Assembly: GCA_964650475.1 (NCBI GenBank)
Contig: CAZYRK010000004.1
Coordinates: 3,787 to 39,494, forward strand
DNA length: 35,708 nucleotides
Reading direction: 5' to 3'
Source of the DNA: an uncultured Candidatus Saccharibacteria bacterium
Lineage (GTDB): Bacteria; Patescibacteriota; Minisyncoccia; Phycocordibacterales; Phycocordibacteraceae
Positions 1 to 29,178 of this stretch are shown here, one piece after another. The translations under genes were made by a program, and so were the position numbers. Within the stretch, counting starts at the first letter, position 1; every line of letters begins with the position of its first letter. Under the pieces are notes generated by a model. That model was given only the letters and a program-made list of their open reading frames with translations. It ran no database searches and was not told the origin of the DNA.

Positions 1-57
1 ACGGATTAGTTATATTTTAACAGACTTTCTTTGTCCGTTTACATAAAAAAATAAACG

Positions 58-66
58 TGTGGATAA
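58..66 (-). promoter_or_regulatory. DnaA box (TTATCCACA on minus strand)
   Basis: TGTGGATAA at 58-66 is the exact reverse complement of the consensus DnaA box and lies in intergenic DNA. Confidence 0.45.
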
Positions 67-423
67 AGACCTGTTTACATGCGTGTTGCCCGCCAAAACA
101 ATAAATTAAAATAATTTTCTCTGGCAGAGTATCTACACTGTTAGTACAAAAAATCACAAAACAAGTACGCTCACAGAAAGCCCTCGAGTAGCTATTAACA
201 CCGTTATTTTTAGCCATTGCAAAGATCTTTCTGTCTTAGACAAACAATCCTTTATGGATAGAAGCCAGCGCCGTAATACTTAGGTTGTGCCTGACATATA
301 CATTACCAATTACTCCGGTTTATTTGTTTTTTTATAATTATTGAGTTACCCGATTTTTTTATTTTAAGTTAATAATAACGCTAGTTTAAAAAGTATCTCG
401 TCTCGGCAAGGTATTGTTTTACA

Positions 424-681
424 TTAAATATCTACGTAAATTTTCACTTCTTCTCCATGAACTGCTATTACTGAATTTTTGTATGAAAAAGTTTTTTCCT
501 TATCAAACATGCGAATTATAATTGGCTTATCTTTCACAAGAGTCACAAAGTTTGAATGCCCCGGAAGAATATCAAACAAACCTATACTGTTTTCAGAAGA
601 TACGCTGTTCGCTTTCCCCTGCCACAAAACCTCGTCCGGAGAGTTTATCGTGACATTAACCGTATCTGGTATTTTTTTCAT
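424..681 (-). CDS. atpC: F1 epsilon-like subunit, N-terminal beta-sandwich only
   Basis: VTINSPDEVLWQG...GLFDILPGHSNFVT matches the epsilon N-domain (G.FGILPGH.P); 85 aa with no C-terminal helical hairpin; ATGA overlap with beta stop. Confidence 0.85.
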   Translation of the reverse strand: MKKIPDTVNVTINSPDEVLWQGKANSVSSENSIGLFDILPGHSNFVTLVKDKPIIIRMFDKEKTFSYKNSVIAVHGEEVKIYVDI

Positions 682-2075
682 ATCTCTTCTTTTATAACAC
701 CTTTTGCAACACCGATATATGAAAACTTTTCCGGAGCTATAGCATCAAATTCACCAGAAAGTATCCCCTCAACATCCTCTATAACAGCATCTCTCGAGAC
801 AAACACTCCTTCACGCCCCGTCTGTTCCTCCATAGTAAAGAAAGGTTGCGTCATATAGTTTCTAAGACGCTGAGCGCGCTCATATGTAAGTTTGTCTTGA
901 GCAGAAAGCTCTTCCTTGCCGATAACAGCGACAATACGCTCAAGTCTCTCGTATTGATTTAATGTTTCTATAGCAGACGTCAGGGCTTTGAAATGTCTGT
1001 CTGTTATCAACGATCTGTCGAGCACCGCCGACTTCGAAGTTAAGAAATCTACAGCCGGATACCGACCCTCCTGGCTCATTGGTCGCGAAAGCACAACAAC
1101 AGCCTCAAAATACGGCAACGCGGCGGCAACAGACGGGTCTGTTAGCTGGTCTCCCGGAACATATACTGTTTGAATAGAGCTTATCGATGCCGATTTACCG
1201 CTCGAGAGACGATTTTCGAACTCAGCAATTTGCGTTTGCAAAGTAGACTGATAACCAAACTCTGACGGTATCTCTTCAAGAAGAGTTGAAAGCTCGTTCC
1301 CTGCCTGAACGAAGCGAAAGATGTTATCTACAAAGAACAAAACATCCGTTTGCTCTTCGTCTCTAAAATATTCCGCCAATGTAGCGGCGGCGGCGGCGAT
1401 TTTAAATCGAACAGCGGCATTTTCATTGATATGCCCAACAATAAGCGCTGTCTTTAGTAGAGCCCCTGTTTCTTGAAGTGACCGCCAAAGCTCGTGACCT
1501 TCTCGAATACGCTCACCGATGCCTGCAAAAAGAGTCACTCCGGGGTGTGTATTATTGAGATTCCTAATGATTTCAGTCATTAATGCAGTTTTGCCGACAC
1601 CAGCCCCGCCGACAAGTGCAAGACGCCCGCCCTCTACCAGAGGCGTAAAGAAATCCAAAATCTTAATGCCTGTTTCAAGTAGTATCTTTTTTTTGTTTCT
1701 ATGTATGGTTATAGCGCGCACAGGAGGATTGATAGGTCTCCTTTCTTTTTCTCCCAATAAAATACCCCCGTCCACAGGTAATCCGTATAAATTAAAAGCC
1801 CTTCCAAGAACACACTCTCCGACAGGAATAGAAAGCGCCGTACCGCTACCAACAATACGCATACCTCTATAAACATCTTCTTTTGAAGACAATAATAAAC
1901 AATGTATTAAATCTCTCCTATAATATGAATGAACTTCGAGTATTACCTTAGAGTCTTTTTCTGCATTTAGCACTTCCAAAAGCTCCGGCCTGTAGTCGCT
2001 CTCGCAATGCACAAGAACAATTTGTCCTCGTACTCCATATACTCGACCAACGAATTGTTTAGTTATTTTTTCCAT
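678..2075 (-). CDS. atpD: F1 ATPase beta subunit (divergent, catalytic motifs intact)
   Basis: LETGIKILD, Walker A GGAGVGKT, GERIREG catalytic Glu, Walker B LFFVDNIFRF, PSEFGYQ, DELSEED-equivalent EELSAQD. Confidence 0.96.
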   Translation of the reverse strand: MEKITKQFVGRVYGVRGQIVLVHCESDYRPELLEVLNAEKDSKVILEVHSYYRRDLIHCLLLSSKEDVYRGMRIVGSGTALSIPVGECVLGRAFNLYGLPVDGGILLGEKERRPINPPVRAITIHRNKKKILLETGIKILDFFTPLVEGGRLALVGGAGVGKTALMTEIIRNLNNTHPGVTLFAGIGERIREGHELWRSLQETGALLKTALIVGHINENAAVRFKIAAAAATLAEYFRDEEQTDVLFFVDNIFRFVQAGNELSTLLEEIPSEFGYQSTLQTQIAEFENRLSSGKSASISSIQTVYVPGDQLTDPSVAAALPYFEAVVVLSRPMSQEGRYPAVDFLTSKSAVLDRSLITDRHFKALTSAIETLNQYERLERIVAVIGKEELSAQDKLTYERAQRLRNYMTQPFFTMEEQTGREGVFVSRDAVIEDVEGILSGEFDAIAPEKFSYIGVAKGVIKEEI

Positions 2076-2908
2076 TTTGAAATTGCTGCAAACGACTCAA
2101 GAAGTCGCAAATCATTAAAGGTATCAATGTTTTTTTGTATATCTCGACGAATACGTTTAATCTGTTTGTCAGCACGATCTTGCGAACGATTGATTGAAAA
2201 CAAACGTGCCGCCGTGCGTGCAAGCTCTGATTCCAAAACCACACGACCAAAAAGCAAGTAACGAATTCTAGTTTCAAAAAAACCAAGTACCTGCGAAAGC
2301 TCAGGTTCGAAAATGTACTCGACAAGCTCGGTCTCTTCAGATTCTACCTCACTTGCGGTGTGTGTAATGTCAGTTTGCTCTATTTTTTGTGCAAAAATAC
2401 TTACAAACGATGGGTAAAACACATGCACTTCATCGTATGCTTCAATCTGATTAAGAAACTTATGTATTTCTGCTTTTGTTGGGCGGTCTTCGACAAAAGA
2501 AAAAGTTTTAATATTTGGTAATTTATCAGACATATCCTCAAGAAAAGACTTCCCTGTGTTTCCTATCACAAGAGTGTCTGTATCTTTAGCGGAACGGGAC
2601 TGTTTAATAAAAGACCTCATAACGTCTGCATTAATTGAACCGTAAAATCGTGTATTCGAAGTTAGTGCTACAAACACCCTACGCACTACGTTTGTTGTTT
2701 TTTTTGGAAGATCGCCCCGAGAGCGCGCTGATCTTTTAATGTCCGAATACAAACTACTTATATCGATATAAAATCTTTGATTTTTTTGAAATTCCGCGCG
2801 CAAATGACCAAGTTTTTCAACACTTATATCAAAAAGAGCCGAAACAACAAAACGGATTGTCTTCAGGTCTTCCAGTTCACTTTTTTTGTTTCCTACAGCT
2901 GTTGACAT
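2063..2908 (-). CDS. atpG: F1 gamma-like subunit (divergent)
   Basis: Position between alpha and beta; TSNTRFYGSIN (cf. TSDRGLCG.FN), YIFEP, ESELARTAARL; terminal helices. Confidence 0.9.
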   Translation of the reverse strand: MSTAVGNKKSELEDLKTIRFVVSALFDISVEKLGHLRAEFQKNQRFYIDISSLYSDIKRSARSRGDLPKKTTNVVRRVFVALTSNTRFYGSINADVMRSFIKQSRSAKDTDTLVIGNTGKSFLEDMSDKLPNIKTFSFVEDRPTKAEIHKFLNQIEAYDEVHVFYPSFVSIFAQKIEQTDITHTASEVESEETELVEYIFEPELSQVLGFFETRIRYLLFGRVVLESELARTAARLFSINRSQDRADKQIKRIRRDIQKNIDTFNDLRLLESFAAISKWKK

Positions 2909-4380
2909 ATATTTTCAAAATAAGGCACAGCTACCGCAAGTTTTCGCAAAAACTGTTCGATTGATATCGTCCCCCGGCGCGCGCTGTTTACAACAGCCTC
3001 AATCTCCTTGTTTGTCCCCGGATTATGCATTATTTCGATAAGAGCATCGCGATTATTGCGCGCAAATGATACATCTTTACCATCAAAGAGCTTTGTAAAA
3101 ACAAGAGAAAGCAACACAATCTGTACTTCAAGGAACATTTCGCTCATAGGCTCTTGGTCAAGGAAAACAAGCATTGTTTCCCCCCTGTTTATAGTTCGGC
3201 GAGTATTTTCAGATAACTGTGTTCCAAACTCAAGATATTTACGTTGCCTTTCATACTCTGCAATAAGTGTTTGTATCCGAATAGATAGTTGCTTCGCCAG
3301 CTTACTCTGTGTTTTGCGCCCGACACGAGTCACAGACTCTTCCGGAATAACTGCTGGAAAATGTCCTTCCGAGTTCAAGAGCGGTGAAAAGAAAAGATGC
3401 CCATCTGTTGCTGAAACTAGATTTGTTGAAATAAGGCTTGATATGTCTTCTATGTTTGTTTCAAGCACCGGCAAAATCGTAATGCTTCCAGAACCAACAC
3501 TTTTGTTAAAACGCCCGCCACGCTCCAATAAATGCGCCTGTTGATAGAACATATCGCCCGGATACGACTCGCGTCCAGGTACTTGACCGGACATAAGTGC
3601 TATTTCTCGTAAATATTTTGCGTGGTTACCAAGGTCATCAAGAACAAGAAGAACATCCTTCCCCTCCCAAGAAAAAGACTCTGCGAGCTCAAGAGCTACA
3701 GTCGGTGCAAGATAAATCATCGGAGCAGGCTCATCTGAAAATGTTGCGAGAATAATGGTGTTTTTATTACCTTTCTCACTAAAAATACGCTCTATGGCTC
3801 CTTCAATATACGCAACTGGACGCCCTATAAAAGTATAGATACATACAACATCTGTGTTTACTTGGTTAGAGATTAGCCCTTCCAAAAATACAGTAATTCC
3901 GCTTGAAATAGGACCGGTAATAAGTTGGCGCTGTCCTTTTGCGATAGGCACAAGTATATCAACAGCGGGCATTCCGGTAAAAAGTTGCTCTGTCATTTGT
4001 TTACGGGCACTCATAGATGGAGCAGATCCTTCAAGGCTGAGAGGTGTCTCACCCTTAGAAAAAGCTCCTAGTCCGTCGATAGGCTCTCCAAGGACATTCA
4101 TCGTACGCCCAAACAGTTCTTCCCCAAACATATAACGCACACCATCAGCATACTGTACAAACCGGTCACCAGACTTAGGGTTTCCGCGATCAAGCAAGAG
4201 TGCTTCAACTCTGTCTTCCAAAAGAGCAGTTATTATCGCGCGTTGCCCCCTGGTATTGCAGATAATATTATTAACGCGCGCTGAGGGAAGTCCTTCAAGA
4301 GTAAGTAAATACCCTTTTGCTTGTACTACAAAACCGGTTTCTCCATCATTAAATGCGCTTTTTTTTGTTAAGTTATTCAT
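2893..4380 (-). CDS. atpA: F1 alpha-like subunit with degenerate P-loop
   Basis: GRTMNVLGEPIDG, PIAKGQRQLI, GKDVLLVLDDL, PGRESYPGDMFY, LLERGG, GSITILP, TNLVSATDGH, SVTRVG (Arg finger); Walker A reads GPISSGIT. Confidence 0.93.
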   Translation of the reverse strand: MNNLTKKSAFNDGETGFVVQAKGYLLTLEGLPSARVNNIICNTRGQRAIITALLEDRVEALLLDRGNPKSGDRFVQYADGVRYMFGEELFGRTMNVLGEPIDGLGAFSKGETPLSLEGSAPSMSARKQMTEQLFTGMPAVDILVPIAKGQRQLITGPISSGITVFLEGLISNQVNTDVVCIYTFIGRPVAYIEGAIERIFSEKGNKNTIILATFSDEPAPMIYLAPTVALELAESFSWEGKDVLLVLDDLGNHAKYLREIALMSGQVPGRESYPGDMFYQQAHLLERGGRFNKSVGSGSITILPVLETNIEDISSLISTNLVSATDGHLFFSPLLNSEGHFPAVIPEESVTRVGRKTQSKLAKQLSIRIQTLIAEYERQRKYLEFGTQLSENTRRTINRGETMLVFLDQEPMSEMFLEVQIVLLSLVFTKLFDGKDVSFARNNRDALIEIMHNPGTNKEIEAVVNSARRGTISIEQFLRKLAVAVPYFENICQQL

Positions 4381-4922
4381 ATTTTGCTTTGATGTAGTGG
4401 AAACGTTGGCATTGTTTGTCTTATTTTATTTTCCAACTCCAAACGATGCTCTTCAAGATAGTATTCGAAACCAAATTCGTGCAATTTACTATGCCAAACT
4501 ATTTGGCACCCTACTGAAATTGATTGGTCAATATCAACATCAAGGAGGACGTCTGGAGAAACCTCCAGACGCGCCCATTTCCCTATCGATTCTATCTGTT
4601 TTGGACCTAAGACAATAGGAACAACTATCGATAACGTCGGCAGGTTATCTACTTCATCTGAAATACTGTTTAATTTTTGATGAAAAGATTCTGATGAAAA
4701 CTCTTCAAAAAAACTTGCTGAAAGGCTTTCTAGAAATACAATATCGGTATGCGGTCTCTCGTCTTTTTGCGAAAACGATTTAATCACGTCTTGGTTTACA
4801 TTTGTGGCGTGCGCTGTAAAAAACACAAATTCGAAAAACTCTTTTAAGACTCCAATTCTGTACGCCACATCAGAGCGACTGTATACCTGTGTTGTAATTT
4901 CTGTAAGCAGGTCTTTTATCAT
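4377..4922 (-). CDS. atpH: F1 delta/OSCP-like subunit (divergent)
   Basis: Directly upstream of alpha with ATGA overlap; C-terminal VPIVLGPKQIESI...VLLDVDIDQSISVGCQI resembles the delta C-domain (VDPSILGG); 181 aa. Confidence 0.7.
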   Translation of the reverse strand: MIKDLLTEITTQVYSRSDVAYRIGVLKEFFEFVFFTAHATNVNQDVIKSFSQKDERPHTDIVFLESLSASFFEEFSSESFHQKLNSISDEVDNLPTLSIVVPIVLGPKQIESIGKWARLEVSPDVLLDVDIDQSISVGCQIVWHSKLHEFGFEYYLEEHRLELENKIRQTMPTFPLHQSKI

Positions 4923-4925
4923 AGT

Positions 4926-5699
4926 CTACATAGAAAAAACACCTTTCTGTTTCGCTTCTTTTAAGGCTTTAATTACTAAATCTTTATGGTCTTCAAGAGA
5001 AATGATTTTATTTAGTGCGATGCGAGCGGTGTCTTCAACAAGAGAGACAATCTCCGAGTTAAGGGCTTCTAGTCTTTGTGTACGATATATCTCGAGAGCT
5101 TTCCTTGTTTCTTGTATGTCTTTTTCAAGCTCTTCAGACATAATCTTTTTTGTGTCTTCGATAAGCGCTCCGTATTCATTTTTTGTGTCTTCTTCCATTT
5201 TGGAAAAGAACTTCTTCATATTTTCTCTTTCGTCACCCATAAGCTTCTTAAGCTCCTCTTCTTGCGCTTCAAGAGTGGTGCGCATGCCTTCCGTATGCTC
5301 CTTAAACCCTACAGAAACAGCCTCAAGAGCCTGTGTAAGAGTAGTGACATGCTTTGTCAACAAATCTTTCGCGTGGTCTGTAGACTCTTGCAACTGCTTC
5401 TTTTGTGCGTCCAAAACTGCTTCATCTTCTTTCTTAAGAATTTCAGAAATATCTCCAGAACGCGTGCGAACAGCCTTACTTTGTTCGCGCGCTTCTTCCA
5501 ATATTTTTTCCGCTTTGCGCTCCGCTACGTTTGTTATTCGGTAATACTCGGGAGATATCAGACTTCGAAAACGCGCTTCAAATTGGATAATGACTGCTAC
5601 AAAAACAACGAGTGTCAGAAGTATAAGAATAAGGACGCCCAAAATAACCGCACTTATAGGGGAAGAAAAAACAGTGGTGATTATGTTTGTAAAATTCAT
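4926..5699 (-). CDS. atpF: Fo b-like peripheral stalk protein (N-terminal TM plus long coiled coil)
   Basis: Hydrophobic segment ISAVILGVLILILLTLVVFVAVII; AERKAEKILEEAR coiled coil; C-terminal LVEDTARIALNKIISLEDHKDLVIKAL is b-like; operon position. Confidence 0.7.
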   Translation of the reverse strand: MNFTNIITTVFSSPISAVILGVLILILLTLVVFVAVIIQFEARFRSLISPEYYRITNVAERKAEKILEEAREQSKAVRTRSGDISEILKKEDEAVLDAQKKQLQESTDHAKDLLTKHVTTLTQALEAVSVGFKEHTEGMRTTLEAQEEELKKLMGDERENMKKFFSKMEEDTKNEYGALIEDTKKIMSEELEKDIQETRKALEIYRTQRLEALNSEIVSLVEDTARIALNKIISLEDHKDLVIKALKEAKQKGVFSM

Positions 5700-5710
5700 A
5701 TCAAGTTACA

Positions 5711-6610
5711 TTATACGGGTAAAAAGAACACCATAAACCCAACAAAAAGCCCAGCCATACTTACCAAAATTATAAGTATAGTATCAAGAACCACGATAGA
5801 TTGAATCGATGACTTTGCCAAAGGGTTACGCCCAACGGAAACAACACTGTTTTTTATGTTTGAACCGAAGTTTTTAAACGCTACAATAACCGACCCTATC
5901 GCAATTGTCGCTGCAATTATGTATTTAACAAACACAGGTATCGGCAAACTGTCTTTATTATTTCCAGTACCATTACCAACACCGTTTTTCTGATTTGTTG
6001 CAGTTCCTGCTGAAACAGGTTTTGACACGAGAGGTGTTGTACTTGCTGTTGCGTTTCTGCTGTGCGGACCCACAGAAAGAAGCACGTGTATTGACCCTGT
6101 GTAAACAACATTCGCGGTTGAGGTACTTACTATGCGTGTACTTGTTGCAATACCTGTAAAAGGTTGTAGTGCCGTCCCTACAATATAAATGTCGGTATCA
6201 TTTGCTTTCTGCCCCTTACCGGGGATTGGAGACGAAGTTATAAAATCTCCGGCATGTATGACTCCGCCTAGAGTAGTTACATTTACAACAACCTCCCCCG
6301 AACGAACAACAGGTACACCACCGTTTGCAGAACGAAAAACAACTACAGGATCATTTACAACTACACCAAACATATTTTTATCGCTTGTTATGTTTGTAAT
6401 ATTAAATGTTTGTTTTGTTTTGTTAAAAGAAATAATATCTCCTGAAATAGGGGGCTTGCCCGAGACAATGTAAGTTTGTGCAAAAGTACTTTCATTGGCA
6501 GTTTTAAAAAACTGGGCATGCGCAATAGGAATAATAGTAATTCCAAAAACAGTCACTACTATAAATATTATTCCTTTTAAAAAAACTTTTTTTGTTTTAG
6601 AAAAGCTCAT
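5711..6610 (-). CDS. Signal-peptide/extracytoplasmic-domain protein with C-terminal subunit-c-like hairpin
   Basis: N-terminal signal ending AHA-Q; beta-rich domain (GDIISF, GVVVNDP, GDFITSSPIPGKGQKA); S/T-rich linker; two C-terminal TM helices joined by GRNPLAK; occupies the atpE position. Confidence 0.7.
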   Translation of the reverse strand: MSFSKTKKVFLKGIIFIVVTVFGITIIPIAHAQFFKTANESTFAQTYIVSGKPPISGDIISFNKTKQTFNITNITSDKNMFGVVVNDPVVVFRSANGGVPVVRSGEVVVNVTTLGGVIHAGDFITSSPIPGKGQKANDTDIYIVGTALQPFTGIATSTRIVSTSTANVVYTGSIHVLLSVGPHSRNATASTTPLVSKPVSAGTATNQKNGVGNGTGNNKDSLPIPVFVKYIIAATIAIGSVIVAFKNFGSNIKNSVVSVGRNPLAKSSIQSIVVLDTILIILVSMAGLFVGFMVFFLPV

Positions 6611-6612
6611 AA

Positions 6613-7659
6613 CTATTGCTCTCCGAGATGCGCAAACGGATTAATTTTTATTTTACTTGTTTGCGCACTGTTTTTTAAACCAGAAGTACGCATGTTTTTA
6701 GCTTGTTGTTTTGCTCGTAATTCTTGTGAAAAAGCATTGAAGTTTTTGTACATTATCGCTGTTGCTACGACACTTTTGTTTGTAAGACTCATCACAGAAT
6801 GACCGACTGCAAAAACAGTATCTCCCACGGTATCTGCAACACGAGGAGAGCCATCAACAAACGCATATATCATATTCGTGTATCCTGCTATCGAAGAACG
6901 TGTAATATTTTGCACCGCTTCTCCAACAGAAATTGCCACTTTGGGAAAAGTGTCTCGTGTATAGATACTGGTACTGCGCACAATCTTACCGCTCACTAAA
7001 ACAGTCCTGCTGTACCCATGGAGAGTGCTTTGTATAGCGCTATATGTAATCTCCCCGACACGCACATAGCTATACAAAGAACCTTTAAGTACATTTGGTG
7101 ACAAAGAAATACCATCTGTTCGCGCAAGACTATTACCGATGTGTACTGATGCAGTAAAAGATGTCGCTCGCGAATACGGTCGTTGTGAAAAAATATGGGT
7201 AACTGCTCCGTACGCAGAAAACATACAAACAAAAGCGAGAGCGAGTGTAGCTCCACCAATAAATGCGTTATGGATAGGTGTGATATTTTCCTGTGTAGAA
7301 TCTTGTAATAAAAAGTTTAGGAAAATAGCTTTTTGCGGTTTTTCTATAGCTTCGTTTTGTTTGTGCTTTTTGTCTATTAAAAGCCCCACGGATTTATATT
7401 CCGGAATACATTGTGTATCTTTTTGTGCCTTTTTATATTCTTCCTCGCGAATTTTTGCAAGCTCTGTTGCTCGTTCTTTTTTTTGCAAAGTATTTCTTTC
7501 AACAAAATCGTTTAGTGACACTTCATCAATAAACCATTTGTTTCCTATGCGCTCCCCACGAACCTTCCCTGTTCGACAAAGGTTCGCGACATAGCTCGTA
7601 CTATATTTTGTACGTGCAGAGGCTTCACTTGCTGATAATTGTAAAGAGGGTAAATTCAT
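6613..7659 (-). CDS. Membrane-anchored protein with N-terminal excisionase/MerR-like HTH
   Basis: LSASEASARTKYSTSYVANLCRTGKVRGERIGNKWFID is a winged HTH (HTH_17-like); TM AFIGGATLALAFVCMFSAYGAV; stop 2 nt before the c-like gene start. Confidence 0.7.
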   Translation of the reverse strand: MNLPSLQLSASEASARTKYSTSYVANLCRTGKVRGERIGNKWFIDEVSLNDFVERNTLQKKERATELAKIREEEYKKAQKDTQCIPEYKSVGLLIDKKHKQNEAIEKPQKAIFLNFLLQDSTQENITPIHNAFIGGATLALAFVCMFSAYGAVTHIFSQRPYSRATSFTASVHIGNSLARTDGISLSPNVLKGSLYSYVRVGEITYSAIQSTLHGYSRTVLVSGKIVRSTSIYTRDTFPKVAISVGEAVQNITRSSIAGYTNMIYAFVDGSPRVADTVGDTVFAVGHSVMSLTNKSVVATAIMYKNFNAFSQELRAKQQAKNMRTSGLKNSAQTSKIKINPFAHLGEQ

Positions 7660-7731
7660 GGAGTAAATGTGAGATATATAATCATCTTACTGTTTTTTAA
7701 TAAAAATATATAGCCACCACCCCCTGTTTAA

Positions 7732-7740
7732 TGTGGATAA
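7732..7740 (-). promoter_or_regulatory. DnaA box upstream of the ATPase-like operon
   Basis: Exact TGTGGATAA in the 7660-7853 intergenic region. Confidence 0.45.
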
Positions 7741-7853
7741 AGAAAACTAAGCAAAATATTATTTACTCAAAAAAAACAAAACTATACCTCGTTCAATGCC
7801 TACGTTAAAAACTCTCGGGATATCTAAAATCTACACGTTTGTAAGTACCGAGC

Positions 7854-8702
7854 TCATTTTGCTATGTATGTTGTTGTTCCGGAAAAGTAACTTATTATTC
7901 CATTAGTTCCTATGGAGGTCTTTGAAAGCGCTCCGAAACTTATAATGGTTACCAAAACAACAACCGATGCAATGAAAATAGTGACGATATTTACAACCTG
8001 CGCAAAAAAGTTTTTATTCTCCGAAGCTTCAAAATATACATTATCATCTGTATCTATAGATTCACCGTTCTTATTACCGCCCTGCGAAACATTGTTTTCT
8101 GAAGACTTGGTTCCGTATTTTTTACTTATTTCAGCATTCCATTTTTGTAAAGCTTCAATACTTTTAGTTGTTTCCAAAGAATCATCGATAAGTGATATGT
8201 CTATATCCGATATAGTGTTATCAGGTTCATGACAAGACTCGTTGTGAGGGATTTCCATATGTTTTTCAGAAACATCAGTATCGAATTCTTTATCGACATC
8301 ACAGCTATTATGGCTTTTTTTCAAAGTAGCGCTTCCATTATTTAATGGAAATTCTTGCTCTTGTTGTTGAACCTGCTTTGATGCTGTGGACTTTTTATTT
8401 AACTTAATAAGCTTTATTGGCGCTACGTCCTCGTGGGTGTATTTGATGTGTTCACTATATGACTCTTTTTTCTTTGTATTTTTATCTTGTTTCGTACTTG
8501 TTTCCGAATCAGAAGTTTTTTCGCCACCAAAACGATGCGCGCGGATAGAATCTTCCAACACATACCAACTTCTCCCAACGAGACGTGCCGTCACTCGCCC
8601 TTCTCTGCACAACTGCCCTACGTAGTCCTTTGCGTAACCGGTTATTTTTGCAGCACCTTTTGAAGAAAGATACTTTTTGCCATCTAGAGTGAGTTCATCC
8701 AT
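7854..8702 (-). CDS. HTH protein with acidic disordered linker and C-terminal TM
   Basis: YLSSKGAAKITGYAKDYVGQLCREGRVTARLVGRSWYV HTH, paralogous to 6613-7659; TM VVNIVTIFIASVVVLVTIISFGAL. Confidence 0.75.
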   Translation of the reverse strand: MDELTLDGKKYLSSKGAAKITGYAKDYVGQLCREGRVTARLVGRSWYVLEDSIRAHRFGGEKTSDSETSTKQDKNTKKKESYSEHIKYTHEDVAPIKLIKLNKKSTASKQVQQQEQEFPLNNGSATLKKSHNSCDVDKEFDTDVSEKHMEIPHNESCHEPDNTISDIDISLIDDSLETTKSIEALQKWNAEISKKYGTKSSENNVSQGGNKNGESIDTDDNVYFEASENKNFFAQVVNIVTIFIASVVVLVTIISFGALSKTSIGTNGIISYFSGTTTYIAK

Positions 8703-8785
8703 ATACTTATAGTATATACAATACTCGTCTCGTTTGGAACATGGCTCCTGTGCATTTCTATTTCTCCGCCAAATAAACAGTACGT

Positions 8786-10210
8786 TTAATGCGTAAGTAT
8801 CCCGAGTAAAAGCTCTTTAAAGACAGCGGGATTACCGGAGCCTTTTGACACTTTCATGCACTGCCCTATAAGAAATTGCAACACCGATTCTTTGCCGGAA
8901 CGAAACTCTTCTGCAACACCAGCATGCTCCTCAAGAACAGCGCTGACAATCTGTGCGAGAGCTTCACGGTCCTGTGTCTGTAACAACCCGTGTTCTTTTG
9001 CAATATCCTCCGGATTGGAACCTTTTTCCGCCATTAAAGCCAAGATATCTTTAGCTCCTCGCGAAGAGAGGTTTCCTGAATCTAGCATACGAATAAGTTT
9101 TGCAAATGATGCTGGTTGTATGTTTTCGTATTCTTTACCACCGTTTTTTGCATACCAACCGGCAAGATCTGATACAAGATAGTTTGTTGCCGTTGATATA
9201 AGCCCCACATCACCATCGAGAGATTTCGCCACGTTCTCAAAAAAAGCAGAGCGGTCTGCCGTATCGATAATATATTCTATAGCATCATCACTAAGCTGAT
9301 ACGCTTGTTTGTATCTCTCTCTGCGTTGCGCAGGTAGCTCTGGTATTGTTAAAGCAACAGCTTCTTGTGTGAAGTCTTTTATTTCTTTAAGTACAAGCTT
9401 CGGTAAATCCGGCTCTGGAAAATACCTATAGTCTGCACTTCCTTCTTTTAGACGCTGTTGAAATGTTTTTTGTGTACTTTCTTCCCAACCGCGAGTCTCT
9501 TGGAAGAGTTTTTCACCTTTTTTAAGAGCCTCTATCTGACGAGCAATTTCAAAAGACACTGCGCGCTCCGCAGAACGAAATGAATTTAGGTTTTTTACCT
9601 CAACCTTTGTACCGAGAGTATCGTCTTTTGATACCGAGATATTTGCTTCGACACGCATCTCACCCTTCTCAAGATTTGCTTTAGACGCACCGAGAGCGCG
9701 TAAAACACGCTGTAATTCTCTCGCAAAACGCCCAACAGTAGCAACATCATGTATTACAGGCTCTGTTACAAGCTCCATAAGAGGCACTCCTGCTCTATTA
9801 AAATCAACAAGGCTTTCGCCGTTTGTATGTGACGATCTGGCAGTATCTTCTTCAAGATGTACACGAGTAATCTCTACGCCTGCCAATTCACCACCAGAAA
9901 CAAGTGGGTATTCGTACTGGCTAATTTGATAACCTTTCGGAATATCCGGATAAAAATAGCTCTTTCTGTCGAACTCACTGTAATCTGTTGCCAGTTTTCC
10001 ACCTAAAGCGACACCTACACGCAAAACATGCTTAACAGCTTCTCTGTTAATGGTCGGGAGTGTCCCCGGATGCGCCATACAGATCGGGCACACATGTGCA
10101 TTTGGTCTTGTTTCGTCTGGAGCATTAGCGCAAGAACAAAACATTTTTGTTTTGGTTGCCAGCTCCGCATGTATTTCAAGCCCTATCGTCGGCGTGTATT
10201 CTGTTTCCAT
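8786..10210 (-). CDS. gatB: Asp-tRNA(Asn)/Glu-tRNA(Gln) amidotransferase subunit B
   Basis: IGLEIHAEL, CPICMAHPGTLP, FDRKSYFYPDIPKGYQISQ, HLEEDTA, DFNRAGVPLMELVTEP, EVKNLNSF, DYRYFPEPDLP; start set at ATG 10210 (METEYTP). Confidence 0.97.
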   Translation of the reverse strand: METEYTPTIGLEIHAELATKTKMFCSCANAPDETRPNAHVCPICMAHPGTLPTINREAVKHVLRVGVALGGKLATDYSEFDRKSYFYPDIPKGYQISQYEYPLVSGGELAGVEITRVHLEEDTARSSHTNGESLVDFNRAGVPLMELVTEPVIHDVATVGRFARELQRVLRALGASKANLEKGEMRVEANISVSKDDTLGTKVEVKNLNSFRSAERAVSFEIARQIEALKKGEKLFQETRGWEESTQKTFQQRLKEGSADYRYFPEPDLPKLVLKEIKDFTQEAVALTIPELPAQRRERYKQAYQLSDDAIEYIIDTADRSAFFENVAKSLDGDVGLISTATNYLVSDLAGWYAKNGGKEYENIQPASFAKLIRMLDSGNLSSRGAKDILALMAEKGSNPEDIAKEHGLLQTQDREALAQIVSAVLEEHAGVAEEFRSGKESVLQFLIGQCMKVSKGSGNPAVFKELLLGILTH

Positions 10211-19243: not shown

Positions 19244-20065
19244 ATGCAAAAAACAACACTCATTAAACCAAAGAAGGCGCTCAGCCTAGACGACATAAAA
19301 GAAATCTGGCAATACAAAGAACTGCTATATTTTTTCACATGGAAAGACTTTAAGGTTCGCTACAAGCAAACCGCCATAGGTGTTTTGTGGGCTATATTCC
19401 AACCATTTATAACCATGGTCGTGTTTAGTGTCTTTTTCGGAAAGTTTGCACACATGCCCTCGGACGGAATCCCCTATCCGATATTCGTATATACCGGGCT
19501 ACTATTTTGGCAATTCTTTTCATCAGCACTCACACAAACAAGCGGTTCGCTAATAGCGAACTCAAATATTATTACAAAAGTATATTTCCCTCGACTTATA
19601 CTTCCCATATCCGGAGTCATCACAAAATTCGTAGACTTTTTCATATCCGCAATAATTCTGGTCGGCATGATGATTTACTATGGCTATGTACCAAACCTTT
19701 CAGGAATATGGATACTTCCGCTACTCCTTATTATAACCTTCATGGCAGCAATAGGAGGCGGGCTATTTCTTGCCTCTATAAATGTGAAGTACCGCGACGT
19801 ACGATACGTCTTGCCTTATTTCATTCAAACAATGCTCTTTCTAACCCCTGTTATTTATCCTGCGAGCATGGTCGGAAAATACTCGTGGCTTTTGGCAATG
19901 AACCCTATGACGGGGGTTATAAAAGCTGCGAGAGCATCGCTTTTCGGAAACGCCCCTGTAAACTGGGAGCTTCTTGGAATTTCATTTATCGCCGTCTCTA
20001 TATTACTTATAATAGGTGTAACCTTTTTCAAAAAAACTGAAAAATACTTCGCGGATATCGTATAA
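19244..20065 (+). CDS. wzm: Polysaccharide ABC transporter permease
   Basis: KDFKVRYKQTAIGVLWAIFQP, KVYFPR, KYRDVRY, LTPVIYP, MNPMT; ABC-2 permease pattern. Confidence 0.93.
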   Translation: MQKTTLIKPKKALSLDDIKEIWQYKELLYFFTWKDFKVRYKQTAIGVLWAIFQPFITMVVFSVFFGKFAHMPSDGIPYPIFVYTGLLFWQFFSSALTQTSGSLIANSNIITKVYFPRLILPISGVITKFVDFFISAIILVGMMIYYGYVPNLSGIWILPLLLIITFMAAIGGGLFLASINVKYRDVRYVLPYFIQTMLFLTPVIYPASMVGKYSWLLAMNPMTGVIKAARASLFGNAPVNWELLGISFIAVSILLIIGVTFFKKTEKYFADIV

Positions 20066-20080
20066 TTTACATAGAACAAT

Positions 20081-21319
20081 ATGGAACCGATTATAACCAT
20101 CAAAGGAATGTCAAAAAAATATAATATAACCCACCAGCAGGGGGGCTATGTTGCATTAAGAGACATCCTCGCCGAGACAGCCAAGCACCCTTTTAAATTT
20201 CTAAAAGACAAAACCAAAAAAGTAATTCGCAGAGAAACGCGAGAGGAGTTTTGGGCACTAAAAAACATAAGCTTCACCGTGAACAAAGGCGAAGCCGTTG
20301 GCATTATCGGGGCAAACGGTGCAGGAAAATCCACCCTCCTAAAAATACTTTCAAAAATAACCCCGCCGACAGAAGGCACAATAGAATACAAAGGCACAAT
20401 GTCTTCCCTACTGGAAGTGGGCACCGGCTTTCACCCAGAGCTAACAGGCAGAGAAAATATTTTCCTAAACGGGGCGATACTTGGCATGACCAAAAAAGAA
20501 ATCGTGGAAAAGTTTGACGACATCGTGATGTTTTCCGGAGTCGGAAAATTCCTCGACATGCAAGTAAAGAGATACTCCTCCGGAATGTCTGTACGACTTG
20601 CTTTTGCCGTTGCCGCGCATATGGAACCGGATATTTTAGTGGTCGATGAGGTGCTTGCAGTGGGCGATGCGGAATTTCAAAAAAAATGCCTCGGCAAAAT
20701 GGACGAGGTAACAAAAAAATACGGGCGCACCATCCTTTTTGTCAGCCACAACCTCCCTGCCGTACAAAGCCTGTGCAAAAGATGCATACTTATTGAAGCT
20801 GGAGAAATTAAAATGATCGGCGACACCAAAGATGTCATTGCACGGTACTTAAAACTATCACAGAATGGACCAAAAAGAGTGGGACCTTACAAGACAAATA
20901 TTGATAATTTTTATATAGAAAATATTAAACTTATCAATAGAAATAAATCTATTTATAATCAACCGTTAGAATTTGAGTTAATTCTAACTTCCGCCAAACC
21001 AATAAACAATATTTTGATCGGGCTACAAATAACAAACAGCCAATTGGTAAGAATAATGACCGCCAAAGTTGATATCCCCAAAATGGATGTAGGTAAAAAT
21101 AAATTACATATTACTATTGAGAACCCTTATTTGCCTCCCGGTAATTATAATTTGAACGCTGGTATAGGAGTTTTGGGAAATAACGTTTTTTATAAGACAC
21201 ATTTATTACCCTTTGAGATATCAACTGAAGGAATTGAGGATATGTTTGCCATATCCAAAAAAGATATTTTGGGAGTATACCCTCCAGTAAGTTACGTTTT
21301 AGAAAAAATAGAAAAATAA
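20081..21319 (+). CDS. wzt: Polysaccharide ABC transporter ATPase with C-terminal carbohydrate-binding domain
   Basis: EEFWALKNISF, GANGAGKS, GFHPELTGREN, YSSGM, DEVLAVGD; C-terminal beta domain (LPPGNY). Confidence 0.94.
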   Translation: MEPIITIKGMSKKYNITHQQGGYVALRDILAETAKHPFKFLKDKTKKVIRRETREEFWALKNISFTVNKGEAVGIIGANGAGKSTLLKILSKITPPTEGTIEYKGTMSSLLEVGTGFHPELTGRENIFLNGAILGMTKKEIVEKFDDIVMFSGVGKFLDMQVKRYSSGMSVRLAFAVAAHMEPDILVVDEVLAVGDAEFQKKCLGKMDEVTKKYGRTILFVSHNLPAVQSLCKRCILIEAGEIKMIGDTKDVIARYLKLSQNGPKRVGPYKTNIDNFYIENIKLINRNKSIYNQPLEFELILTSAKPINNILIGLQITNSQLVRIMTAKVDIPKMDVGKNKLHITIENPYLPPGNYNLNAGIGVLGNNVFYKTHLLPFEISTEGIEDMFAISKKDILGVYPPVSYVLEKIEK

Positions 21320-21335
21320 TAATAAAGGATACGAC

Positions 21336-22346
21336 ATGACTCACACAATAATTAGTTGGGATTGTAGTTATAGAAATTTTTTCCATATTATTGACGGACT
21401 ACTACTTCAAGACTACCCCAAGGAAGAGTTTGAGCTTATCTATATCGAACAACGGAGTAAGAAAGTGGCTAATAAACACAATCGCAGTCTTGGACTAAGT
21501 TCTCTTGAAGACCGATATAGAGAAGTAAAAAATAAATTAAATATTAAGATTATTTATTTAGACGAACCCGGAACAGTTCCTTTCCATTGGGGTAGATGTA
21601 ATAATGCCGGACTTAGTATCGCTAAAGGTAAAATAATATCTGTTATGGATGGAGACCAACTATTACCAAGAGATTTTTTGATTAAGCTACAAAACTTCCA
21701 CGAGAGGAGCCCTGATGCTGTAATAAATATCTACAGGAAAATGGCTCAATATCCTGCTGGTGTAAAATCGTATAAAAAATGGTTCGAGGCAAGTAATGAT
21801 TTCCATAAGTGCTTGAATACCTGCCTTAACAAGAACTCTACTGTTCCAAAAAATGCAGGGAATAAAGGGCCTATGATATCTGCTCGCAAAGAATATTGGG
21901 ATAAGATAGGAGGATATGACCCGCACAAAATTTGGAGTACCAGTTTATCAAAATTGGGGGGGGATGTTAATAAACGACTGGAAATAGCAACGGGGTCACA
22001 AAGCGTTTGTCTACCAAATTGCTTTACAGTACACCCATGGCATCCACGAGGAACAGAATCCTTACGCCAAAATGAAAGTATTTTGAAATATTTTTCTTTT
22101 CAAGATAAACTGACTGACTGGTCTACTAAACACAATGAACCGCACCATAAAAAAAGATTGCTCTTGGCAGATAAAATTTATAAAGAAAATAAAAAAAGTA
22201 TTGAAATGATTCGGTCTCTGTATCATATTGATGAGACAAAGAATGATGTTATTCTAAAAAGTATACTCAAGATAAAGTTTCAAAATCAGTACGCTCGACT
22301 TAAAGGTATTATTTATAGAATTAGAATTAAATATAAATTATTATGA
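21336..22346 (+). CDS. Glycosyltransferase, GT-A fold (GT2-like)
   Basis: QDYPKEEFELI, NNAGLSIAKGKIISVMDGD, IGGYD. Confidence 0.8.
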   Translation: MTHTIISWDCSYRNFFHIIDGLLLQDYPKEEFELIYIEQRSKKVANKHNRSLGLSSLEDRYREVKNKLNIKIIYLDEPGTVPFHWGRCNNAGLSIAKGKIISVMDGDQLLPRDFLIKLQNFHERSPDAVINIYRKMAQYPAGVKSYKKWFEASNDFHKCLNTCLNKNSTVPKNAGNKGPMISARKEYWDKIGGYDPHKIWSTSLSKLGGDVNKRLEIATGSQSVCLPNCFTVHPWHPRGTESLRQNESILKYFSFQDKLTDWSTKHNEPHHKKRLLLADKIYKENKKSIEMIRSLYHIDETKNDVILKSILKIKFQNQYARLKGIIYRIRIKYKLL

Positions 22347-22374
22347 AACATATTTTATTAAAATTAATAATCAA

Positions 22375-23322
22375 ATGATTAAACTTATATTTAATGGTTA
22401 TTACCGTTCAGGGACAACGATGATGTATAAGATACTAAAAAAAAGCAATCCTAAAACAGATTGTTTTTATGAGCCGCTACATCCAAATTTGTTTAACGAA
22501 ATAACAAAAGGAACTGCAACATCCCTACATAAATTTTATCCATGGAGCGACTATAACGAAAGCAATTTTAAATCTGTTTCAAAAAGATATAGACTAGTCC
22601 ATAGTAAATTAAAAAAAACAGGTGATGATATTATTCCTACTAATCTCCAAGAGATTAGACCTCTTTTTGATCTTTTCCAAAATTTCAAAAAAGACGTAGT
22701 ATTACAACCCAACAGATGTCACCTCGTTCTAAAAGAGGCTACGAGCAACTACAATTGTAAATTTGTACACATAGTCCGTAACCCTATTAACGTTTGGTTA
22801 AGCCAAACATTAACACCACCAATAAGAAATAGAGACCGGCTTAGAAAAACCTATGGATTTGTAACAAGTCTTTTTGGTAAGACTGGCAAAAAATACTTTT
22901 TGATGAAATACTTACCAAAAAATAAAGAGGTTGGAAACTTTTTTTTTGGAGATTCTGACTATAAACTTATAGCGAATAAATTTAATAGACCAATTAACGA
23001 AAAAAATCAACTGTCTAAAATGCTTACTGTTTGGACATATTTTAATTACCAAGCTTTTGTTCAAGCGAGTAATGGAAACGGGATGATTGTTTTTTATGAA
23101 GACATTGTACTTGAACCTGAAAAATGGTTAAAAATAATATCAAATTTTTCAGGTTTAAAATTAGATAAAAAATATGCTAAAAACATACTTCCCAAAATAG
23201 ACTCCGATAAAAATTTAAGACAGGGCTTTGTAAAAAAATTAAAAGAGCTTGAATTAATTGATATGGTTAAAGAATTCTACCCTCCTGAAAACTGGTTTGG
23301 TAATTTCGTAGAAAAAAATTAA
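22375..23322 (+). CDS. PAPS-dependent sulfotransferase
   Basis: 5'-PSB loop GYYRSGTT, FYEPLH, 3'-PB motif HIVRNPINVWLS, YEDIVLEPE. Confidence 0.82.
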   Translation: MIKLIFNGYYRSGTTMMYKILKKSNPKTDCFYEPLHPNLFNEITKGTATSLHKFYPWSDYNESNFKSVSKRYRLVHSKLKKTGDDIIPTNLQEIRPLFDLFQNFKKDVVLQPNRCHLVLKEATSNYNCKFVHIVRNPINVWLSQTLTPPIRNRDRLRKTYGFVTSLFGKTGKKYFLMKYLPKNKEVGNFFFGDSDYKLIANKFNRPINEKNQLSKMLTVWTYFNYQAFVQASNGNGMIVFYEDIVLEPEKWLKIISNFSGLKLDKKYAKNILPKIDSDKNLRQGFVKKLKELELIDMVKEFYPPENWFGNFVEKN

Positions 23323-23335
23323 ATAAAGATTTAAA

Positions 23336-24484
23336 ATGAATATCTATATAGATGGCATAATTTACAATCTACAAAAAACCGGCGGGATTTCTCGTTATTT
23401 TAATGAGTACCTCAGTAGATTAAACAATATAGAGGTTGATACAAAAATAAATATTCTAATTGATAAAGACCTGATCGGGGAACTGCCAAAAGAAGAAAAT
23501 ATTACTATTAAAAAAGTAAGACAGTTAACACCTCCACGCCCTAACCGTATTTTTAAACCTTTGTTTCAACCAATAAATAACTACCTTAAAAATAGATATT
23601 GGGAGAAGTTAACTACCGGTGTTTTTCACTCAACTTATTTTACCACCTATGAAAGCTTAAAAATTCCGCAGGTTCTTACCGTGCACGATATGATTTATGA
23701 AAAATTTCCTGTTTTTTTTCATACAAAATTAAGCTTGGAATTTGTCAAACAAAAAAAGAAGTGCATCGATTCGGCAGATGCTATTATTTGCGTCTCTGAA
23801 AACACAAAAAAAGATTTGATCGATTATTACAACGTGAATGAAAATAGAATTTCTATAATTTATTTAGGAGTTAGTCATGATTTTAAAAAAATTACAGATA
23901 AAAAAATAAAAGAAGATTTTTTAGATAAGAAAAACATTATAAAACCATACTTATTATACGTGGGTGCTAGAGATAAATATAAAAATTTTTTAGGCTTTAT
24001 TAAATCATACAATAACTTAAATGAGTTCAATTTAGATGTCATAGTTGTAGGTGGTGGAAAGTTTACAGAAAAAGAAATTAATTTGTTTAAAACAAATAAT
24101 ATTGAAAATAAAATTCATAATTTTGGTTTTGTTTCCAATAGAGAATTAATTTCATTATATAATTGTGCGAAGGCTTTTGTATTTCCATCACTTTATGAAG
24201 GGTTTGGTATACCGTTACTAGAAGCAATGGCGTGCGGAACCCCTATTGCAACATCAAATTCATCATCCCTACCAGAAGTTGCTGGAGATTCTGCTTTATA
24301 TTTTGACCCAAAAGATACAGAAAATATGACCAAAGTAATAGCACAAGTAATACTTGAGGGAAGAAATTCAAATCGTATAAAATTAGGGTTAAACAGGGTT
24401 AAAAATTTTACATGGAGTAAAACAGCGGAAGAAACCCTTAGAGTATATAAAAAAATCATAGATAAACAAAAACTAAATCAATAA
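23336..24484 (+). CDS. Glycosyltransferase family 4
   Basis: GGISRY, TVHDMI, VSENTKKD, FVFPSLYEGFGIPLLEAMACG. Confidence 0.92.
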   Translation: MNIYIDGIIYNLQKTGGISRYFNEYLSRLNNIEVDTKINILIDKDLIGELPKEENITIKKVRQLTPPRPNRIFKPLFQPINNYLKNRYWEKLTTGVFHSTYFTTYESLKIPQVLTVHDMIYEKFPVFFHTKLSLEFVKQKKKCIDSADAIICVSENTKKDLIDYYNVNENRISIIYLGVSHDFKKITDKKIKEDFLDKKNIIKPYLLYVGARDKYKNFLGFIKSYNNLNEFNLDVIVVGGGKFTEKEINLFKTNNIENKIHNFGFVSNRELISLYNCAKAFVFPSLYEGFGIPLLEAMACGTPIATSNSSSLPEVAGDSALYFDPKDTENMTKVIAQVILEGRNSNRIKLGLNRVKNFTWSKTAEETLRVYKKIIDKQKLNQ

Positions 24485-24488
24485 AAAT

Positions 24489-27967: not shown

Positions 27968-27974
27968 TTTCTTT

Positions 27975-28982: not shown

Positions 28983-28984
28983 AT

Positions 28985-29016
28985 TTTAATAACAAAATGA
29001 AAATACTTCACACAGT
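28985..29016 (+). repeat. 32-bp direct repeat, copy 1 (copy 2 at 29994-30025)
   Basis: TTTAATAACAAAATGAAAATACTTCACACAGT occurs at both positions. Confidence 0.9.
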
Positions 29017-29163
29017 GGAAAACTACAGTCGCGCTAAAGCAGAAACAAACTGTTGCTAAATTCCATGGCACGAAACGGATATGACGCATGGTTGAAAAAG
29101 TTTACATGGAAAGAAATTGCTCAAAAATATGAAAACGTTTATTTAAATTTAGATATCGGGTAA
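28997..29163 (+). pseudogene. Internally deleted GT4 remnant, paralog of 30006-31265
   Basis: Starts MKILHTVENY (cf. MKILHTVKQY), then in another frame MARNGYDAWLKKFTWKEIAQKYENVY (cf. LAYAGYKSWQERFTWEKIAREYERVY). Confidence 0.8.
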
Positions 29164-29178
29164 ACTGTAGATAATAAT

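Follow-up and report, generated by a model that had tools for sequence, protein, structure and literature searches.

A conserved F1-like ATPase gene cluster of Patescibacteria that lacks subunit a and carries a c-like subunit fused to an exported domain

A cluster of genes related to those of F-type ATPases occupies positions 424-7659 on the minus strand of a 35,708-nucleotide stretch of DNA (the window; contig CAZYRK010000004.1, positions 3,787 to 39,494, assembly GCA_964650475.1) from an uncultured Candidatus Saccharibacteria bacterium, a member of the candidate phyla radiation (CPR; Patescibacteria). The reading that we favor, with a probability of about 0.55, is that the products of seven of its genes (c-like fusion through epsilon) make up a self-contained rotary ATPase of the F1-like kind, which hydrolyses ATP, does not translocate ions and has a neighbouring surface apparatus as its load. 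CPR bacteria, most of them uncultured, account for a large part of bacterial diversity, and it is usual to interpret the F-type ATPase genes found in them as ATP synthase. The set in the window is an additional F1-like set and is not the ATP synthase of the cell.

The eight open reading frames (ORFs) of the cluster, all on the minus strand, are packed tightly in the order helix-turn-helix/transmembrane (HTH-TM) gene, c-like fusion, b-like, delta, alpha, gamma, beta and epsilon. Followed in this direction, they are separated by gaps of 2, 11 and 3 nt and then overlap by 4, 16, 13 and 4 nt. The catalytic beta-like subunit (678-2075, 465 aa) and the alpha-like subunit (2893-4380, 495 aa, with the degenerate P-loop GPISSGIT) match PF00006 at 7.3e-59 and 1e-54, respectively. 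The gamma-like central shaft (2063-2908, 281 aa) matches PF00231 at 4.8e-23, and the epsilon-like subunit (424-681, 85 aa), which consists of the beta-sandwich domain only, matches PF02823 at 7.9e-11. All four score below the cut-offs of the canonical NCBIfam equivalog models: beta reaches 436 bits against 462.85 (atpD), alpha 309.1 against 484.45, gamma 61.4 against 194.45 (TIGR01146) and epsilon 38.7 against 67.25 (TIGR01216).

The 299-, 257- and 181-aa proteins of the c-like, b-like and delta-like genes have no informative Pfam match of their own. The delta/OSCP-like subunit (4377-4922, 181 aa) is identified through its family, 9 of whose 16 members match OSCP (PF00213, best 2.3e-11), and phmmer links the window protein to ORFs in the equivalent slot of other loci (for example L040, at 1.2e-12). 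The b-like peripheral-stalk candidate (4926-5699, 257 aa) combines an N-terminal transmembrane (TM) segment, residues 15-33, which is its single hydrophobic segment, with a long helical region. Its family is found in the window and in 16 of the 20 related loci described below, and single members give weak matches to V-ATPase G and to HrpE/FliH. Compared by hhalign with the single canonical b and delta of the same genome, the b-like and delta-like profiles gave no significant match (E 0.21 and 0.11), a single-sequence template having low power. The signals found in a scan for promoters and terminators were not above those of shuffled sequence. A search for sequencing runs containing this DNA listed metagenomes on the DNA side and no RNA run.

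None of the eight ORFs contains the stator arginine motif of subunit a, R-[LIVMF]-[FLIVM]-[GA]-N, and none has more than three hydrophobic segments. The gene order and the lack of a subunit a, both put forward in the first-pass annotation of this DNA, hold. The genome (658,728 bp in 30 contigs, 98.56% complete) was searched for a second, canonical set, and a complete atpBEFHAGDC operon with its own alpha and beta is present on a separate contig, C13. It consists of atpB (247 aa, with RLFGNIFAGE), atpE (75 aa, Glu kept), atpF, atpH, atpA, an ORF of 176 aa, atpG, atpD and atpC. The one PF00119 subunit a and the one canonical subunit c above cut-off in the genome both lie there, and the genome holds four alpha/beta-type genes in total. 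The window beta is 42% identical to the canonical beta, and the window alpha 33% to the canonical alpha. As a side observation on the C13 operon, the 176-aa ORF between atpA and atpG (L009 5565-6095, plus strand) carries no assignment, and two subunits are short, the delta with 128 aa and the epsilon with 82 aa.

In other genomes the cluster stands without such a partner. Five cluster-bearing genomes, 95-100% complete and in two cases single contigs, have no match at E<=1 to either PF00119 or PF00137 (0/5 each), and consequently no Fo can be borrowed from elsewhere in them. About 18 cluster-bearing genomes have only 2-4 PF00006 matches, the best of them at E 1e-59 to 1e-70, which is the level of the divergent set. 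Judged from these matches, the cluster appears to be the sole F-type set in about one third of its carriers. Nor is a subunit a supplied from next door, no conserved polytopic neighbour being found among the flanking families shared by the 20 loci.

The cluster is widespread in the phylum. A profile search of 401 Patescibacteria genomes with the c-like fusion matched 175 of them, and among the matches listed the full-length protein is present in at least 52 of the 401; the remaining matches are to the exported domain alone, within ORFs of 1,000-6,895 aa. Twenty full-length loci from 20 genomes were examined with about 9 kb on each side. In 19 of them alpha, gamma and beta lie beside the c-fusion in the window's order, and b-like, delta and epsilon genes are found in most (gamma in 19, epsilon in 18); one locus has a permuted order. 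The Saccharimonadales carry the cluster (L061). In four loci (L042, L053, L057, L058) epsilon lies on the opposite strand, convergent with beta, and its reading frame is intact in both cases that were translated (L053, L057).

In larger collections, the c-like fusion has 533 homologue clusters in a set of 5.8 billion proteins, where all source names that state a taxon are those of Patescibacteria groups, and 537 representative proteins at E<=1e-30 in a set of 1.84 billion representatives. A few of the homologues are named 'subunit c' by the Joint Genome Institute. A metagenome-assembled genome (MAG) labelled Candidatus Sulfotelmatobacter (Acidobacteriota; G403; L062, L140, L143) has a cluster-type beta, two c-fusions and a giant ORF with the exported domain, which points to a mis-binned CPR contig or to transfer.

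The c-like fusion (5711-6610, minus strand, 299 aa) is the most unusual component of the cluster. Its AlphaFold2 model, built on 75 sequences with a predicted local distance difference test score (pLDDT) of 82, contains a signal-peptide helix, a beta domain (residues 43-182), a linker (about 185-222) and two C-terminal helices (224-261 and 263-296). The linker is disordered over about 40 residues (pLDDT <50). The two helices form a c-subunit-like hairpin (5723-5941, minus strand, residues 224-296) with a GRNPLA loop. In fold comparison the hairpin superimposes on the c-ring chain 2wie_A with Z 9.8 and a root-mean-square deviation (rmsd) of 2.3 Å over 80 residues at 20% identity; the c-ring chains 6z1r_K and 4v1f_A follow with Z 9.5 and 9.4, and Foldseek TM-scores are 0.75-0.80. 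The family profile aligns with the genome's own subunit c at a probability of 83.6% (hhalign, E 8e-6). Taken alone, nine of ten hairpins have 'F0F1 subunit C' as their best NCBIfam match, at E 4.7e-7 to 0.043 and in all cases below the cut-offs, and four of the ten match Pfam ATP-synt_C. Signal peptide, exported fold and c-type hairpin were all recovered, in keeping with the earlier description of a c-like protein with an exported domain. Some family members (P0193, P0198, P0222, P0225 and others) are longer, 450-585 aa, with 200-340 extra residues ahead of the exported domain and hairpin, which brings them nearer in size to the architecture of the Mycoplasma 'Protein 5' discussed below. A word search for proteins of 525-2,000 aa ending in the hairpin found none, which is weak evidence.

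In real c-rings, the loop of the hairpin contacts gamma and epsilon. All 75 sequences of the family alignment agree in G-R-N-P and in the Ala that follows (GRNP.A), and the column aligned to the canonical Glu is V, L, I, A, F or G in every one of them. Since the GRNP is invariant and the Glu column is hydrophobic throughout, the contact surface for gamma-epsilon has been frozen and the ion site lost. A nearby polar column in the second TM helix (TM2) is Asn in 71 of the 75, Asp in three and His in one, the three being the window protein (D276) and its two closest relatives.

These data bear on the possibility that the complex is an ion-translocating F-type ATPase or synthase, working through an unrecognised stator, a canonical subunit a supplied in trans, or the Asn/Asp site in TM2. 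The gene order is that of atpEFHAGDC, a delta and a stalk-like protein, which the Mycoplasma Type 2/3 clusters lack, have been retained, the window protein has its Asp276, and the cluster appears to be the only F-type set in about a third of its carriers. Against this stand the cluster-only genomes without any subunit a or canonical c, the lack of a conserved polytopic neighbour, the hydrophobic residue at the Glu position in every sequence and the rarity of Asp in the Asn column; a fused exported domain and the loss of an arginine from beta, described below, would also be unexpected in a synthase. We consider an ion pump of this kind very unlikely.

The exported domain (6065-6484, minus strand, residues 43-182) is modelled with pLDDT >90 and is predicted to have a 'tulip' fold known from the decoration proteins, fibre bases and tailspike C-termini of phages. 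Its best fold match is the C-terminal fragment of phi29 gp12 (3gqh_A, Z 12.7, rmsd 2.5, 112 aa), followed by HFTV1 (8qsy, Z 12.2), Sf11 (9ocb, Z 11.2) and the XM1 capsid entry (7kmx_a, Z 9.5); BB1 and the base of phi29 gp8.5 are also among the matches. Overall, the phage folds match with Z 8.7-12.7 over 106-125 residues at sequence identities of 10-18%. The domain also matches Pfam PF23982 (the XM1_gp53 family) at 8.8e-4, which is below the cut-off. The matching phi29 gp12 fragment begins at residue 692, and we take it to be an autochaperone. Where the domain occurs in giant proteins (L153, L154 and others) it begins with D-L-A-E-(T/Y)-(Y/F), which resembles the I-A-x-T-Y at the start of the mature c-fusion domain.

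In the catalytic head, Walker A, GERxRE and DNxxRFxQAG (Walker B) are kept in all 19 aligned cluster betas (L046, a near-copy of L043, was left out of the alignment), and Walker A of the window protein reads GGAGVGKT. The cluster alphas retain the Arg finger (SVTRVG in the window), and the Lys of the alpha P-loop is kept in 18 of 18 other cluster alphas and lost in that of the window alone. One change sets the cluster betas apart. The Arg of the canonical LLGRxPSAVGYQ, which in E. coli beta is presumably one of the residues that bind phosphate, is missing from all 19, where the motif reads PSE(D/G/Q)GYQ; in the L056 beta an Arg lies one position earlier. Among 80 betas from other named genomes, G-R is kept in 72.

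Phylogenetic trees were calculated from 63 rows under LG+G4, with an alpha outgroup, and from 59 rows under LG+C20 with posterior mean site frequencies (PMSF), both as quick searches. Nesting of the cluster betas among those of ordinary CPR ATP synthases was looked for, and under both models the 25 cluster betas form one separate group, with Shimodaira-Hasegawa-like approximate likelihood ratio test (SH-aLRT) support of 100 and 100. The 29 ordinary betas, including the canonical beta of this genome, form a second group (99 and 96). A third group of five (L073, L117, L121, L090, L115), apart from the cluster clade, is probably N-type. The cluster clade spans contigs labelled Microgenomates, Saccharimonadales, WWE3 and Patescibacteria, together with the one 'Sulfotelmatobacter' MAG. 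The computational checks thus found neither that the window's set is the sole F1 partner of the atpB and atpE on C13 nor that its beta nests among ordinary CPR betas.

The window beta has the longest branch of its clade, and the window alpha has lost its P-loop Lys, as might be expected of a decaying, functionless duplicate of an ATP synthase operon. Such an origin is hardly credible, however, because the eight ORFs are intact and translationally coupled, the order of the seven genes is kept across many families of the phylum, the catalytic motifs are invariant, and some complete genomes keep only the divergent set.

The load of the proposed motor has to be sought among the neighbouring genes. 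An ORF family of 419 to more than 2,932 aa flanks the cluster in 17 of the 20 loci, all its members being cut by the ends of the fetched stretch. These giant proteins (giants) are mostly divergent from the c-fusion and in two cases lie downstream of epsilon. They have a common build, in which a MerR/HTH_17 N-terminus is followed by some 100 residues, then by a single hydrophobic segment and finally by a very large exported part. HTH_17 is matched in 14 of 20 N-termini and MerR in 13 of 20 (best 4.5e-29). Fifteen of the 17 visible N-termini are N-in signal-anchors with no cleavable signal peptide. Near the C-end of four of the eight complete flanking giants (G200, G148, G315, G243) there is a tulip domain, as in the c-fusion; none of the eight ends in the hairpin. 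In the present genome, an ORF that shows this build and spans at least 1,210 aa starts about 0.5 kb downstream of epsilon, just to the left of the window, and runs off the contig. At positions 3694-3786 of the contig (L152, G000:C4), left of the window, a run of N is flanked on both sides by the same sequence of about 55 nt, marking a scaffold join, and with the scaffold ends overlapping, the true spacing between epsilon and this giant is shorter than it appears.

The HTH-TM gene that heads the cluster (6613-7659, minus strand, 348 aa) encodes a lineage-specific protein with an HTH_17 domain (7.4e-06, 26.6 bits against a cut-off of 27), one TM-like segment (residues 132-150) and an exported C-terminal part. 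It has no phmmer match in the 20 related loci, and its relatives in the databases amount to two clusters, one 99% and the other 86% identical to it. Hence it does not qualify as a conserved subunit. The AlphaFold2 model of this protein, calculated on an alignment of two rows, has a pLDDT of 34.8, which is too low to use, and the ESM Atlas held no usable match for the exported part. The gene had been thought to fill the atpB slot. As a replacement for subunit a it is ruled out by its single TM segment, by its lack of conservation and by the lack of the Arg motif, and a role in DNA handling, also suggested at first, finds no support beyond the HTH domains.

Upstream of it a second HTH_17 protein is encoded (7854-8702, minus strand, 282 aa; HTH_17 at 4.5e-4), with a C-terminal TM-like segment at residues 236-254. 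The two are 38% identical over 42 aa and are paralogues by their N-terminal domains; the HTH domains of the downstream giant and of the HTH-TM protein share 33% identity. Both HTH proteins of the window are short members of the architectural class of the giants. The conserved element is that architecture, in which a single TM segment joins MerR/HTH_17 to a large exported part, and it resides mostly on the giant flanking proteins.

The 12-mer TCTTTATCCACA is found at 7732-7743 (minus strand) and again at 58-69 (minus strand), in each case about 73 nt upstream of where a gene starts, the first being the HTH-TM gene and the second the giant HTH-TM ORF. These are the only two copies in the whole 659-kb genome, both in the window, where shuffled sequence gives an expectation of 0. 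Within the 12-mer lies the DnaA-box-like TTATCCACA, which occurs 18 times in the genome.

Observations of this kind raise the possibility that the motor is real and that the giants are not its load. The tulip crown would then bind or remodel the envelope (the wall, an S-layer or the host surface), and the MerR-HTH proteins would be contact-sensing regulators. The HTH domains are genuine MerR/HTH_17 matches, the shared 12-mer stands about 73 nt ahead of two of the HTH-TM genes, and the tulip domain is present in only half of the complete giants. On the other hand, no common palindrome was found in 13 intergenic regions between c-fusion and giant, and no short-spaced inverted repeat between the genes of window positions 1-9000; moreover, the roles of regulator and load are compatible. 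We regard this alternative as unlikely.

It is likewise improbable, to about the same degree, that the complex is a dedicated export or assembly ATPase for the giants, resembling FliI-FliJ-FliH or type III secretion, with the tulip domains as assembly chaperones on the outside. Alpha and beta match the FliI and SctN models at 1e-40 to 1e-52, the closest fold to the tulip domain is the phi29 gp12 fragment, most giants have a signal-anchor in place of a cleavable signal peptide, and they are tightly linked to the cluster in the genome. However, the hetero-hexameric alpha/beta head together with gamma, epsilon, delta and a c-type hairpin corresponds to the rotor of an F-type enzyme and not to an export gate. 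Furthermore, no gene for a FlhA- or SctV-like gate was found among the conserved neighbours, SecA is encoded within the window itself, and three of the 20 loci have no giant as a neighbour.

By combining these results, the proposed rotary ATPase can be described in some mechanistic detail. In the scheme that we infer, ATP is hydrolysed, the hairpins form a ring, and this ring rotates. An alpha3-beta3 head with catalytic betas would turn gamma-epsilon, which would dock on the invariant GRNP loops of the hairpin ring, while the b-like/delta stalk would hold the head in place. As there is neither a subunit a nor a ring carboxylate, the torque would not be spent on an ion gradient. It would instead pass through the membrane to a crown of exported tulip domains, each on a linker of about 40 residues. 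The most likely load would be the giant, membrane-anchored, fibre-like neighbours with their cytoplasmic MerR-type HTH domains, some of which carry the tulip domain themselves. The motor would presumably serve in attachment, motility or surface remodelling of the episymbiont. The reasoning parallels the one put forward for the F1-like ATPases of Mycoplasma, Type 2 (gliding) and Type 3 (MIB-MIP).

Several points weigh against this description. A flexible linker would be poorly suited to passing on torque if the outer domains did not assemble into a rigid ring, and it is unclear what, without a subunit a, would link the stator to the ring within the membrane. The b-like protein is a candidate stalk by position and architecture, without detectable homology to subunit b (PF00430 is matched by 0 of 17 family members). 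The MerR-type HTH domains suggest that the giants, instead of being the load, might regulate the operon; none is present within about 9 kb in three of the 20 loci, the tulip domain is missing at E<=1e-3 from four of the eight flanking giants that are complete, and in one of the 20 loci the c-fusion itself has no adjacent F1 genes. The window copy, moreover, is the most divergent one: its beta has the longest branch of the clade (end branch 1.08 to 2.49), its alpha lacks the P-loop Lys, and its TM2 carries Asp. This Asp, found in 3 of the 75 sequences, leaves a small chance that the window lineage binds protons.

If the F1-like rotary ATPase does act on the giants, it is possible to go one step further. 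An outward-facing motor, whose tulip crown grips the giant MerR-anchored fibres, might work as a winch or crank for host attachment or gliding, and it might be linked in evolution to the Mycoplasma X0 machines, 'Protein 5' being a derived c. We put this forward as a tentative proposal, somewhat improbable as it stands.

Elsewhere in the window, positions 19244-32167 (plus strand) form an island with a low GC content of 0.29-0.36, compared with 0.40-0.45 in the surrounding DNA. Genes for an ABC exporter of the Wzm/Wzt type, an epimerase, proteins resembling sulfotransferases and at least seven glycosyltransferases lie in this island, which is probably a surface-polysaccharide locus acquired by horizontal transfer.

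A channel-less set of this kind is present in at least 13% of the sampled Patescibacteria genomes (at least 52 of 401, among the matches listed). Metabolic reconstructions that count the cluster as an ATP synthase would be wrong wherever it is the sole F-type set. If the present interpretation is true, a rotary ATPase has been re-used for mechanical work outside the cell, by means of a ring without ion coupling and an exported domain. With its retained b and delta and its recognisable c, the cluster would represent a readable intermediate between F1Fo and the F1-like X0 machines of Mycoplasma, and it offers a testable idea of what the membrane sector of the latter is. Word searches of the literature found no description of the c-fusion, and a 2026 preprint on CPR beta homologues in 'unusual genomic neighborhoods' describes, in the portion available, neither the c-fusion nor a missing subunit a. 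Saccharibacteria are reported, in the accessible part of the source, to be genetically tractable (Wang 2023, PMC10633639).

Among known systems, canonical F1Fo shares with the cluster the order c, b, delta, alpha, gamma, beta, epsilon, the F1 catalytic motifs and a hairpin with an R-N-P loop. The CPR cluster differs in having no subunit a, no ring carboxylate and no Arg in the LLGRxPS motif of beta; its c is fused to an exported domain, its betas form a clade of their own, and its F1 subunits fall below the equivalog cut-offs. N-ATPases resemble it in being a second F-type operon beside the main one. As far as the available text of one source goes, they have a and c with ion sites and no separate delta, and their operon starts with beta-epsilon (10.64898/2026.10.01.756066), whereas the CPR cluster has a delta and no subunit a. 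The N-ATPase models TIGR03305 and TIGR03324 are matched with 422.9 bits against a cut-off of 752 and 299.2 against 750.5. The FliI/SctN models of the flagellar and type III secretion ATPases are matched with at best 178 bits against a cut-off of 619.1, and the CPR cluster, unlike these homo-hexamers, has separate alpha and beta paralogues. With the tulip proteins of phages it has the fold in common, the CPR version being fused to the membrane hairpin of a rotary ATPase; the domain is also widespread in CPR proteins of 1,000-6,900 aa.

Another parallel is the sF-ATP of Omnitrophota, described in the consulted part of its report as a non-respiratory F-type ATPase beside type-4a pilus genes (Seymour 2023, PMC10066038). 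It too would be a non-respiratory F-type paralogue in ultra-small, probably host-dependent bacteria with giant ORFs. Its beta is said there to cluster with betas of Saccharimonadia (TM7) (PMC10066038), and by that statement the Omnitrophota and CPR sets may be one family. In contrast to sF-ATP, the CPR cluster has no recurring pilus family: none was found in the genes of the window or among the families common to at least four of the 20 loci. The full-length c-fusion is present in 0 of 151 sampled Omnitrophota genomes and the tulip domain alone in nine of them; the sole Omnitrophota beta in the tree (L128) is canonical.

There is also a likeness to the Type 2/3 'F1-like X0' clusters of Mycoplasma. 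According to the available sections of two reports, these clusters have counterparts of alpha, beta, gamma and epsilon, and none of a, b, c or delta. Their other products include a protein with 12 TM segments, 'Protein 2', which is small and cytoplasmic, and 'Protein 5', in which a signal peptide and a large exported part precede two uncharged TM helices at the C-terminus (PMC3369863, PMC12994834). The same sections state that the Type 2 G1-ATPase drives gliding of M. mobile and that Type 3 is required for the MIB-MIP surface system (PMC3369863, PMC12994834). In both groups, as far as these sources go, a tiny host-dependent bacterium has, in addition to its genuine F1Fo operon, a further F1-like cluster of seven genes, with alpha-, beta-, gamma- and epsilon-like subunits and no subunit a, and in both it is proposed that force from cytoplasmic ATP hydrolysis is delivered to surface proteins. 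Compared by description only, the c-like fusion shares the build of 'Protein 5', that is, signal peptide, exported part and two C-terminal TM helices.

The two groups are not close in sequence. Alpha and beta score higher on canonical models than on the four NCBIfam Type 2/3 models, MSC_0618/0619 and MMOB1660/1670, where they reach 372 bits against 570, 214.1 against 520, 277.3 against 600 and 369.7 against 850. The G1-ATPase beta in the PDB, 9io5_A, gives 310 bits, against 340-390 for ordinary betas. The beta trees described above comprise cluster, ordinary and probable N-type betas, and the Mycoplasma sequences lie outside that sample. The CPR cluster differs further in that it has no 'Protein 2' and that no 12-TM protein is found in it or among its conserved neighbours. 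It has a delta/OSCP homologue and a b-like stalk, both missing from the Mycoplasma clusters as these are described in the sources at hand, and its hairpin is still recognisably c-like. Because delta, stalk and a recognisable c remain, the CPR machine would be less derived than the Mycoplasma machines, which suggests that the 'Protein 5' of Mycoplasma may itself be a derived c subunit.

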